From positions 3,297,084 to 3,361,083 of the forward strand of contig NC_057742.1 in assembly GCF_004010195.1 (NCBI RefSeq): a stretch of DNA of 64,000 nucleotides, written 5' to 3'. Below the pieces are notes generated by a model. It saw only the letters and a list, made by a program, of their open reading frames with translations, was not told the origin of the DNA and did not search any database. Numbering within the stretch: position 1 is the first letter of the stretch; each line of letters opens with the position of its first letter. A program made the translations under genes and the position numbers. The DNA is from Chiloscyllium plagiosum. Its lineage: Eukaryota. Shown in pieces: positions 2,936-64,000 of the stretch.

Positions 2936-3186
2936 TTAGGGTTGAAAGGCGCTTGCTCCGGCCGTCATGCTCATGCTTTTCAGCTTGTTGTCCTTTTTCC
3001 ATTTCATCCTCCGGTTCTGGAACCAAATCTTGATCTGCCGTTCTGAGAGACACAGAGCATGGGCAATCTCTATCCTCCGCCGTCGGGTTAGATATCTGTT
3101 GAAGTGGAACTCTTTTTCCAACTCCAACGTTTGAAAACGAGTATAAGCAGTCCTGGCTCTTTTCCCGTCGGGTCCACCCATGCCAT
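2936..3186 (-). CDS. hoxb5: Hoxb5 exon 2 (homeodomain)
   Basis: Encodes [83 protein letters not shown]. Acceptor is tttattagcag|AT, phase 1. Confidence 0.96.
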
Positions 3187-34895: not shown

Positions 34896-34979
34896 AACTG
34901 GAGTAATTCAGGCAGTTTCTTGTCACTGCGATCAAACAGAAGCCCAACAACATGAAACTACCTAAGTCACACAGCAGTT
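34896..34979 (-). ncRNA. mir196a: mir-196 precursor (mature miR-196a-5p at 34943-34964)
   Basis: Exact reverse complement of UAGGUAGUUUCAUGUUGUUGGG, with a pairing 3p arm at 34908-34928 and a basal stem AACUG/CAGUU. It sits at the canonical position between Hox9 and Hox10. Confidence 0.97.
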
Positions 34980-38702: not shown

Positions 38703-40815
38703 CTGTCAATCGGGAAAAACACATTGTCAAACGACCTATAGAGTAAAATAGATTCTGTTTTCCTCCCTTTCACCACCAATGACTCAGGAATTGCAAAAAG
38801 GTATCCCGACTGAGAAGGGGGAGGGTTAGGATTTTCGGCACATAGTCAGCTAGGGGAATATGAACACTCCATATTTTATCCTGCTTCGTATTAGCGTATG
38901 GTATAGAAGGGTGTTTCACGATGGAGCATTACCTGCTTGATTCAACTTTAGGCCTATATAACAGTTTCGGCAACTGTACTCAAAGGAATATCATGTACCT
39001 GGACAAATACCAGCGGGAGGGTCTAATTAGGTTCATTATAAGGCATTTTCACGAATGCACGTGGCACTAAAACTTGATTCCTAACAATACAGAGATGAAG
39101 GTAATAGAAGAAACTATTACGGACAATACATAATACATTACGGACAATCCCTTTGATATTACAAAAAGACACGATGGTGCCTAAAGCTTTATTTCAAAAA
39201 CAGCATTATGTTTAAAACACAGCTAATTTAGTTTGCAATGAAACACAACCTAAACTAAAATTCAAATTAATAATGGTAAAATTATGTTAAAAGTGTGAGT
39301 AACTGGTTTAAAGTAAGCATATTTATTTTCTACTGCATCCAGGAAAGTGCATGTAAACACTTGTTAACTTTCCAGAGACAATGTTTTATGCAACGACCTT
39401 GCTGAGTACAGTTTTAGAACACATTTGTTACATGCCACATAACGGTTAACCCCGGTATAAAAGCTTTTATTCTGACTTTATCTCCAAGGTTCTGGTTTAT
39501 GCAAGGAAGGGAAAACAGTTGTGAGCTGAGGACAATAAAATAGAACCATAGGTCCAACTGTTTTAAACAGGAAGTCATCAGGCATTTTATAAGGCTTCTC
39601 CACACTTCTCATTTTATTTTTTTTTCCCTGACAGTCTAGCATTCCTTTTGCTGGAGTGGATGCAAGCAAATGACACATTCTAATGCAATTCATCGTCTTA
39701 TTGTGAATGTAGGGATGCAATGCTCTATATTGATCTCTTTCTCCATAAGATTTTAGATTTTTAAATAGTTTCTCGTTATAAAAATAATATTATCTCTGAG
39801 GTGAACGCCTTTATAGTATTAGTCGAATTTAGTTGCTTCCACCAACGTTATTGCATCATCCTAAAATATCATGCACCAGAATACATCATTGACAAAAAAA
39901 AATCAATATATTCAACCTGTAGGCACAATACCACAGTCGCTCGACATCTTTACAGTCTATCGTGGCAAAATACAGGTATTTGACTTTCTCGGGCACTAAA
40001 ACATGTCGTTTCGTGAAATCCGACAGTTACAATAAAACTGTAGCATCTTCTTGTTCAGTGAGCCGAATAGCCTCCATCTGTGCTGCAAGTTTTCCATATC
40101 TCTAAAGTAACTCGATTGCAAGTGCAGTTATCCACTAACCATTTAAGATTACAGCATTGATGTAATTCCATTAATGCAAGTTACACCCTTATACAGTTCT
40201 TGATTTTATGGAAAAGGTCCAAAGTCATGGAATATAAATCAATATTACATATTCAGTCATTGTAAGCTTATCAGCATGCAGATATAACAACACTCACAAA
40301 GAAACTGCTGATATAGAGTTAAAATATTCGGCGTGTGTGGTGCAGGGGATAGTTCCTTACTGACCAAATTTCAACTGGCTGAGCTGAAACACGCGAAGAA
40401 TATCTGAGTATCACTACTCAACGACTCTGTAAATGGAACAAAAACAGAAAATGCTGTAAATAACTCTGCAGTTCTGGCGGCATCTGTGGAGAGGGGTACA
40501 GAGTTAACGTTTTCAGGTCGTGACATTTCAACAGAACGAACTGAAATGTTAACTGTTTCTGTCTCTCTCTACTGAGGCTGTCAGATCTGCCGTGCATTTC
40601 GCCATTTTCTGTTTTTCTCATGGATTTACTGTTTTGAAAATATTTTGCTTTTGGTCTCTATATAAATATGGACTGGCCACGTTTTTGTTTACAACTCTAG
40701 GCATTATTATACGGACACGATTTGCCATTAAGTTGTGTCGACACTATTTGCCAACATCCCAGTATTCAGCCGTATATTAGGAATGTTTCCCGCGTCTGTT
40801 TTGGTCATCCAAAAA

Positions 40816-46107: not shown

Positions 46108-46196
46108 TCTGCTTTCTCTCCACAGATGCTGCCAGATCTGCTGAGATTTTCCAGCAATTTCTGTTTATGTTGCTGATTTTCAGCATCTGCAGTTCT
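46108..46196 (+). mobile_element. Short interspersed repeat fragment, probably Penelope-type terminal repeat remnant
   Basis: tctgctttctctccacagatgctgccagatctgctgagattttccagcaatttctg...cagcatctgcagtt is homologous to 63368-63454 in this window, where it follows a hammerhead-like motif. The family assignment is inference. Confidence 0.7.
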
Positions 46197-62725: not shown

Positions 62726-63003
62726 CTCTCCAAGTCAACTATTGTAACAATATGAATTTTTGTTGGACTTACATTGCAAAATAGACGACTGCATCTGTGT
62801 ATGGTGCAAAACGTGCCTGCTTCCTGTTCTTGCAAATCTAGATAAGATTGTACAAAACAAAATCAGAAATTGTTGGGAAAACTTAGCAGGTCTGGCAGCA
62901 GAATTAACCAGTGACCCTTCTTCAGAACACTTCTGCAGACTCTTCTTTAGAATTAGGAAGGCATACTTTCTAGGTAAGTTCTGAAGAAGGCTCTCTGGAC
63001 CTA

Positions 63004-63345
63004 TGATTTGGAGGTGCCGGTGTTGAACTGGGGTGTACAAAGTTAAAAATCACACAACACCAGGTTATAGTCCAACAGGTTTAATTGGAAGCACTGGCTT
63101 TCGGAGCGCTGCTCCTTCATCAAGTGGTTCTTATTCTATTTTATGTTTGAGGGGTATGCTGTGCTGATACTGCTCCTGTTTTCAGTGTGCATCAAGACCC
63201 AGTATTCAAAGGAAAAAAATGCAAACCAAACAATTAAAATTCTGAATTTAATACAAATTTGGCAACCACCTGATGAAGGAGTGGCACTCCGAAAGCTAGT
63301 GCGCTTCCAATCCAACCTGTTGGACTATAACCTGGTGTTGTGTGA
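63004..63345. mobile_element. Insertion with inverted Penelope-type terminal repeats, flanked by a 12-bp direct repeat
   Basis: Inverted arms at 63049-63129 and 63264-63345. TCTCTGGACCTA is duplicated at 62992-63003 and 63346-63357. The internal 63130-63263 matches 63674-63808. Confidence 0.85.
63264..63304 (+). ncRNA. Candidate minimal type I hammerhead ribozyme motif
   Basis: Reads CAC-CUGAUGA-A-GGAGU(GGC)ACUCC-GAAA-GC-UA-GUG. This gives both core boxes, a 5-bp stem II, a palindromic AGCU helix III and a CAC/GUG stem I. Confidence 0.7.
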
Positions 63346-63948
63346 TCTCTGGACCTAAAACGTTAACTCTACTTTCTCTCCACCGCTGCTGGCAGACCAG
63401 CTGAGATTTTCCAACAACTTCTAATTTTGTTTCTGATTTCCAGCATGAGCAGTTTTTAATATACCTAACAATGATTGTCTGATAAGGAAATTATAATCCC
63501 CCAAAACCTCAAAATTCAAATAAATTGCGAAATGAGGAGGAGAAAGGTGATGGTTTATAGCTTTGTGTCCCTACATTGGAAAATATTTATTTTACTCAAT
63601 TAGTTGAAGTGTTCTGCTGAAAAAAGTTCAAATTCTTACTGTTAACTCAAGGACGAGAATAGATAATATTCTTCTTATTCTATTTTATGTGTGAGGGGTA
63701 TACTGTGCTGATACTTCTCCTGCTTTCAGTGTGTCTCAAGACCCGGTATTCAAAGGAAAAAAATGCACAATAAACAATTAAAATTCTGAATTTAACACAA
63801 AATTTGGCGAGCAGTGTAAAAGATTCTTTCAGGCAATAATTATCTTTCATGATTGGAAAAGAATTTTTTTCTTGTCAAACGATTTTACCTTTCGGTACTA
63901 TTGCAGTCAGTCCAAAATTGTTAATAAACTTCACATTCTCCCGAATGT

Positions 63949-64000
63949 GGCATGGTGGCTCAGTGGTTAGCACTGCTGCCTCACACAGCCAGGGACCTAG
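63949..64000 (+). mobile_element. 5' end of a tRNA-derived SINE (HE1-like), truncated by the window end
   Basis: ggcatggtggctcagtggttagcactgctgcctcac...gccagggacc has an A-box TGGCTCAGTGG and resembles the head of the common elasmobranch SINE. Confidence 0.8.

Follow-up and report, generated by a model that had tools for sequence, protein, structure and literature searches.

The nested hammerhead insertion in this 64-kb stretch of DNA (hereafter the window) is real, was correctly described in a preliminary description and is of a known kind. With considerable confidence, it is explained as a head-to-head insertion of the hammerhead-bearing end of one Penelope-like element (PLE), family F2, in a decayed copy of another, family F1; such nests are about as common as expected by chance, and this one likely arose when reverse transcription started at both ends of the cut DNA, used two RNAs, and was patched with nearby DNA. 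The nest itself matters little, and the remaining interest lies in the count of mismatches between the arms of F2 pairs. How PLE inverted repeats form is the open question: their formation is called undefined in a passage of Craig et al. 2021 (PMC8557442), and self-priming is proposed for them in a passage of Arkhipova et al. 2013 (PMC3846280). As F2 pairs number in the tens of thousands and their subfamilies can be typed, counting arm mismatches can tell one-template from two-template models apart.

Anatomy of the nested insertion

The host is the direct arm of an F1 pair, split in two on the plus strand. Its 5' part (62975-63003), comprising stem I, the CUGAAGA core and stem II, hosts the insertion, and its 3' part (63358-63457; 80.9 bits) comprises the GAAA motif decayed to AAAA, helix III, stem I, body and tail. 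A 12-bp target-site duplication, TCTCTGGACCTA, flanks the insert at 62992-63003 and 63346-63357 (plus strand). Removal of the insert and one duplication copy yields an empty site reading AGTT-CTGAAGA-AGG..CCT-AAAA-CG-TT-AACT, which scores 100.7 bits against a profile of 29 other F1 copies (profile positions 3-131), confirming that excision restores an F1 hammerhead and that the host is a minimal hammerhead with a GAAA to AAAA change. The repeat body of the host was also correctly traced to a second place in the window, matching 46108-46185 at 83% over 78 nt.

Within the insert, a tailed F2 arm on the minus strand (63004-63129; family positions 1-126) carries four differences from the family majority, a hammerhead with two core changes (63092-63126) and a tail of ~38 nt (~63004-63041) that is absent from the plus arm; its tail ends coincide with loose-end peaks at 63003 and 63039-63042 in contigs from four runs. 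A 133-bp spacer (63130-63262, plus strand) follows, a copy of the sequence at 63672-63807, sharing 2 and 1 nt with its neighbours at the two junctions. The insert ends with a tail-less F2 arm on the plus strand (63263-63346; family positions 0-81), which has a subfamily haplotype unlike that of the other arm and a hammerhead with an intact core (63267-63301), the only zero-mismatch match of a minimal type I descriptor in the window. The two outward-facing motifs, one intact and one with two core changes, were thus as reported. Because the two arms show 89% complementarity across 83 nt, and duplications of at least 8 nt arose in just 8 of 526 flank-swap controls, chance is excluded as an explanation for this arrangement. 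Missed earlier were the reach of the arms past the motifs, the tail on the minus arm, the local origin of the spacer, and an inverted, tail-less F1 arm on the minus strand at 62855-62931 (profile positions 3-106, 53.5 bits; inverted repeats I2 and I4), which has an internal deletion through its hammerhead. No target duplication was found around the F1 pair in the window, and the 46-nt middle of this pair aligns loosely to F1 upstream sequence.

A search of contigs from organisms A and B found no empty F2 site. Their contigs span 62900-63031 and 62916-63025, respectively, both short of the 31-base bridging rule, so that an insertion common to the two organisms is only hinted at.

Two Penelope-like families and the frequency of their nesting

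Both families are abundant. A 30-mer of the F2 arm occurs 30,571 times in the genome (control, 0) and a 15-mer of the F1 hammerhead 17,031 times (control, 53). Walking upstream from longer F2 copies led to open reading frames (ORFs) of at most 480 aa, in which reverse transcriptase (RT) motifs, a CxxxxCxxC linker and a GIY-YIG-type domain are followed by ~500 nt ending in the F2 unit; RT motifs, linker and a VVYLIHC/WYIGET-type endonuclease lie upstream of F2 ends at four loci (L109, L110, L111 and L114). From these last motifs, the endonuclease is presumed to be of the GIY-YIG type. The Pfam RVT_1 model matched two of three F2 ORFs weakly, under its cut-off, the Pfam GIY-YIG model matched none of the three, and a search of PDB sequences with an F2 ORF returned nothing relevant. 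Because ORFs with RT, linker and GIY-YIG-type domain run into the F2 unit, F2 is, judging from sequence, the 3' pseudo-LTR (pLTR), or short end, of an autonomous PLE. An intact minimal hammerhead is present in the majority sequence of 259 aligned F2 pieces. The proposal that F2 is a separate non-autonomous element did not hold, as 48 of 218 F2 arms extend at least 40 nt upstream and long copies reach the ORF. F2 was also considered as a MITE or DNA transposon and rejected on account of its asymmetric arms, variable 5' ends, 10-19-bp duplications and retroelement ORF.

The F1 majority, built from 29 copies after one of 30 was excluded as another family, likewise has an intact hammerhead core. 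Upstream of one F1 copy (L157) lie a frameshifted linker and endonuclease homologous to those of F2 (E 6e-6), and an inverted partner lies no more than 400 nt from nine of the 30 copies. F1 is identified from these copies as a second, older PLE with its own inverted arm, and the suggested Penelope link is borne out for both families, each being tied to GIY-YIG ORFs. The additional Zn-finger-like CxxxxCxxC motif lies between the RT and endonuclease domains in the F2 ORFs and is also present in the F1 copy. By the linker criterion given in PMC8557442, F2 would be of the Neptune type.

Where the F2 tail ends, an ORF likely begins. Some 45 of 100 listed tails that had been chosen for ATG continue as ATGAC (counted by eye), and it is likely that the tail adjoins an ORF start of this sequence. 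No partial tandem of pLTR, ORF and pLTR in direct orientation was found at ten long loci, nor was a full copy of this structure recovered. The minus-strand F2 tail in the window (63004-63045) resembles a branch point and 3' splice site followed by ATG, and an intron may be present in the F2 leader, as it is in Drosophila Penelope.

That one element had inserted into the other was confirmed by the F2 pair inside an F1 copy. The further idea that F2 targets stem II of the F1 hammerhead is very improbable. It draws on two other nests, one with the F2 pair in F1 stem II in the geometry of the window, a 16-bp duplication and ~20 extra nt (L232, reverse complement 1244-1631) and one with the F2 pair at the centre of an F1 pair (L233), and on two of 65 other empty sites that adjoin the end of an F1-like match. 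However, such nests are what chance predicts for families this abundant, and three tests showed no enrichment: the F1 5'-half motif followed by the F2 tail end was found 0 times against 1.27 expected from motif counts of 17,031 and 20,456, limiting enrichment to at most ~2.4-fold; the other junction was found three times, the window locus included, against a rough estimate of ~2-4; and none of the 65 other reconstructed empty sites lay inside F1, against 1.8 expected from its 2.8% cover. In addition, F2 target sites have no common motif and are merely AT-richer (67% vs 56%). The host was itself no longer intact: both duplication copies carry F1 mutations, indicating that F1 had decayed before F2 arrived, and its GAAA to AAAA change falls within a CpG and is present in seven of 23 scorable F1 copies. 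Nesting of F2 in F1 thus occurs at about chance frequency and targeting is largely refuted, with room left for a weak F1 preference of under about 2.4-fold.

Paired arms, their templates and captured DNA

Head-to-head insertion is what F2 routinely produces. In a sample of 155 loci on contig C1, collected with exact motifs that leave the 5' end free and thereby favour younger copies, 218 distinct arms were typed, 154 of which lie in head-to-head pairs. Among all 107 pairs collected, exactly one arm is tailed in 97, and a 10-19-bp duplication flanks 66, against the flank-swap background given above. The 3' ends of the arms are bimodal (107 at 79-103, 106 at 119-126 and five elsewhere), and the same two classes of ends appear as loose-end peaks in contigs from four runs of two organisms. 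Their 5' ends fall at -5 to +11 in 105 of 218 arms, ~30 nt past a TATAAA sequence. From these ends, which are the sole indication of the start site and promoter, we infer that each short arm is a cDNA copy of the 5' leader from a transcript that had not been cleaved. Pairs of other composition were also observed, such as one with a 13-bp duplication and arms 98.8% identical whose 671-nt middle resembles the coding sequence of another PLE family (L036:1730-2402, also L198), and two adjacent F2 pairs (L034:1259-1674), the reconstructed target of the second being itself F2, by self-nesting or tandem duplication.

Passages of two PLE studies describe the insertion unit of endonuclease-bearing PLEs as a 5'-truncated copy with an adjacent inverted copy, a 30-40-bp tail at one end, a short target duplication and a hammerhead in the pLTR (PMC8557442; PMC3846280). 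The inverted copy and one-end tail of the 97 pairs and the short duplication of the 66 agree with this published signature, so that two outward-facing hammerheads are a routine F2 insertion product. Cervera and De la Pena 2014, in a passage that names no shark family, reported pairs of minimal hammerheads that lie on opposite strands and 100-700 bp from each other (PMC4209133), and the type I core, unpaired base before stem II and palindromic helix III of F2 and F1 resemble the metazoan PLE motifs described there. In A. vaga, pLTRs enclosing captured host DNA have been described, as has the insertion of one Penelope in another (PMC8557442; PMC3846280); here, captured DNA is traced to ~320 bp away and arms are typed by subfamily, neither of which features in those passages.

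The closest functional parallel is the Anolis Poseidon element PAc, whose protein is described as cutting and extending both strands, with two internal RNA start sites giving tailed and tail-less ends, in a passage of Frangieh et al. 2024 that leaves the later insertion steps unvalidated (PMC11167929). F2 resembles PAc, as far as described there, in two RT start sites bracketing the tail, in the presumed cutting and extension of both strands, in AT-rich targets and in the use of uncleaved RNA, which is the main substrate of PAc and is consistent with the lack of a cut-site peak in F2. It differs in its CxxxxCxxC linker (Neptune-type) and in a tail that ends at the likely start codon, compared with 111-118 nt into the ORF in PAc. 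Non-canonical L1 insertions offer a further likeness, as two RNAs can give inserts of opposite orientation that are joined at their ends, and extra sequence can be templated from DNA near the site; however, such products are rare for L1 (nine and three cases), and the two-armed form is the majority product of F2 (PMC11702581). Non-LTR retrozymes, as characterized in part of a recent preprint, are also short PLE-derived units with type I hammerheads, but form head-to-tail tandems, in contrast to the head-to-head F2 pair with its target duplication (bioRxiv 10.64898/2026.07.22.740005). F2 was accordingly rejected as a non-LTR retrozyme, being an inverted pair and not head-to-tail tandem units each with a hammerhead.

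The insertion in the window would have begun with a staggered cut of ~12 nt, each 3'-OH priming its own cDNA, one at position ~126, by the likely ORF start ATGAC, and one at ~81-95. Both cDNAs would have been copied from RNA that had not been cleaved, reaching its 5' end, which lies ~30 nt past the TATAAA box and immediately ahead of the hammerhead. One cDNA end may then have annealed ~320 bp away through homology of 1-2 nt, or 4 of 6 nt, and copied 133 nt before this extended end was joined to the other cDNA end. Against this explanation, the junction homologies amount to only 1-2 nt.

The spacer is 91% identical to its native source (63672-63807, plus strand, ~315-330 bp from the target site, with no F2 sequence beside it), and these are the only two places found by a genome search. 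It differs from the native copy by twelve substitutions, two of which match organism B, since of the five listed sites at which B and the native copy disagree, the spacer has the B base at two; it is therefore an old, real duplicate and not an assembly error. Contigs from the four runs do not cover 63180-63231 within the spacer, a hole that proves nothing about its position between the arms. Similar captures are few. Among 19 pairs with at least 25 nt of non-element spacer, three have a long local match (the window locus, L002 and L150); the weakest capture is at L149 (83% over 52 nt), and a 31-nt match at L140, lacking a duplication, was left out of the count. Local capture was present in none of 77 pairs of an unbiased set and is thus rare, and a strict search for pairs with non-element spacers returned four loci, comprising two local captures, one element-derived spacer and one unexplained. 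At L150, both arms continue from one genomic point 1.5 kb away, where five of six bases match the arm end and there is no F2. The clearest candidate for a jump of cDNA ends to neighbouring DNA is a pair at L182:4710-6830 (G000:C2, near 134517200), whose arms continue for 347 and 54 nt into one point 1.5 kb away. Elsewhere, two F2 arms have a common outside extension of ~35 nt with no source within 5 kb (L148:1430-1643).

Two alternatives to this explanation were weighed. One holds that the spacer is a 5' transduction, in which 63807 once had an F2 copy, since lost or on another haplotype, whose read-through RNA gave both the spacer and the plus arm. The collinearity of these two with the native sequence would be explained, and the common outside extensions of the L150 and L148 arms look as if derived from one chimeric RNA; however, all four source sites lack both F2 and a scar, 63807 lies within unbroken contigs in organism A as well as organism B, and a fold-back lies inside the captured piece of L002, and transduction is considered decidedly unlikely. 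The other, somewhat more credible although still improbable, is the model of Arkhipova et al., in which the inverted arm is made from a single template by self-priming or fold-back and arm differences reflect later mutation or gene conversion. Self-priming is argued in a passage of that paper from junction palindromes (PMC3846280), and palindromes and microhomologies are found at F2 junctions. Among 62 typed pairs with a duplication, 41 agree at all three subfamily markers, while 21 differ at one or more, as do 14 of 44 short-short pairs with a duplication. Yet discordance at transversion markers is ~8 times the mutation background, and fold-back alone gives no account of exactly one tailed arm, nor of the L150 arms extending from one outside point.

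Frequent arm mismatch at subfamily markers favours two RNA templates. Of 85 single-event pairs, 74 were typed for a TG indel, and in 13 of these the arms differ, against a background of 0 2-nt insertions in 85; the arms also differ at site 46 in 9 of 75 pairs, compared with 26 of 1722 in the background (P 2e-6), and at site 21 in 6 of 53. The arms in the window match two common haplotypes, A20 without and G20 with the TG insertion, and are separated solely by this indel and one CpG site; a TG indel between arms can also arise by slippage, and post-insertion gene conversion may likewise be a source of arm mismatch. Because discordance per marker (11-18%) is far below that of random pairing (40-46%), most pairs also fit one template or fold-back. 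The evidence, from a small sample, leans towards two templates in at least a third of events. The balance tips modestly towards a wider proposal, that the default integration route of PLEs is double-ended target-primed reverse transcription with two separate RNAs as templates, one per protomer and per start site, that free cDNA ends can copy the neighbouring chromosome before joining, and that arm mismatch is a genome-scale record of this process. A literature search, with most subscription papers and supplements outside its scope, found no test of arm-to-arm subfamily mismatch in PLEs.

Hammerhead motifs and the genomic setting

Both family majorities have the components of a minimal type I hammerhead (CUGANGA and GAAA cores, stems I and II, a palindromic helix III and NUH), in keeping with the original identification of both motifs as Penelope-type minimal hammerheads. 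Of the family-level features looked for, the intact cores were found, and stem covariation within F2 was not. In the window, the plus copy, with a predicted cut after CUA at 63298, has the full set of components, but the minus copy and the host do not, the latter being split by the insert and lacking G12. Rfam hammerhead models gave no match at the gathering threshold and none at E <= 10; an Rfam match to MIR2630, far under its cut-off, was discarded as a long-hairpin artefact.

The paired difference in stem II between the two F2 arms (GGAGU/ACUCC vs GGAGC/GCUCC) does not stand as covariation; CpG decay, which had been raised as its alternative, suffices. Among 99 arms with G at position 20, C19T is present in 14, G23A in 13 and both in two, one of which is the window arm, and independence predicts 1.84. 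Changes in F2 stem pairs are one-sided and mostly at CpG sites, with paired differences solely between F1 and F2, and stem II covariation within F2 was rejected because double CpG decay predicts the observed count.

The locus is best read as a dead fossil, in which ribozyme function is predicted to be unlikely. Because the motifs lie on opposite strands, a dimer cannot form from one transcript, and a transcript of the locus is predicted to fold as a single long hairpin (-167.7 kcal/mol, z -13.5). No hammerhead fold is predicted for the monomer (z 0.34). The predicted cofold of two plus motifs, in which the stem II halves pair but helix III does not, is uninformative. Fossil evidence of cleavage was sought and rejected, as F2 5' ends show no peak at the cut site (ten arms over the seven positions 33-39, compared with 30 over 21 positions).

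Six homeoboxes on the minus strand, near 3025, 6948, 14946, 18653, 28778 and 38514 (within 2900-38600), together with mir-196 at 34900-34973, place the window in a Hox cluster. That the locus is a ribozyme cassette of this cluster, functional or under selection, is nevertheless scarcely credible, although the intact plus core and its position, ~24 kb to the 5' side of the window's last homeobox, might point to it: 108 of 226 sampled F2 arms keep an intact core, so this one is not unusual, its partner is mutated and on the other strand, and the predicted folds are those given above, a single hairpin for the transcript and no hammerhead for the monomer.

PLE fragments are seen to sit within the Hox cluster. 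Another F1-like head-to-head pair lies there at 40423-40633 (minus arm 40538-40423, plus arm 40538-40633). At the end of the window (63940-64000) begins a SINE, presumably tRNA-like, which runs on past the window in L186.
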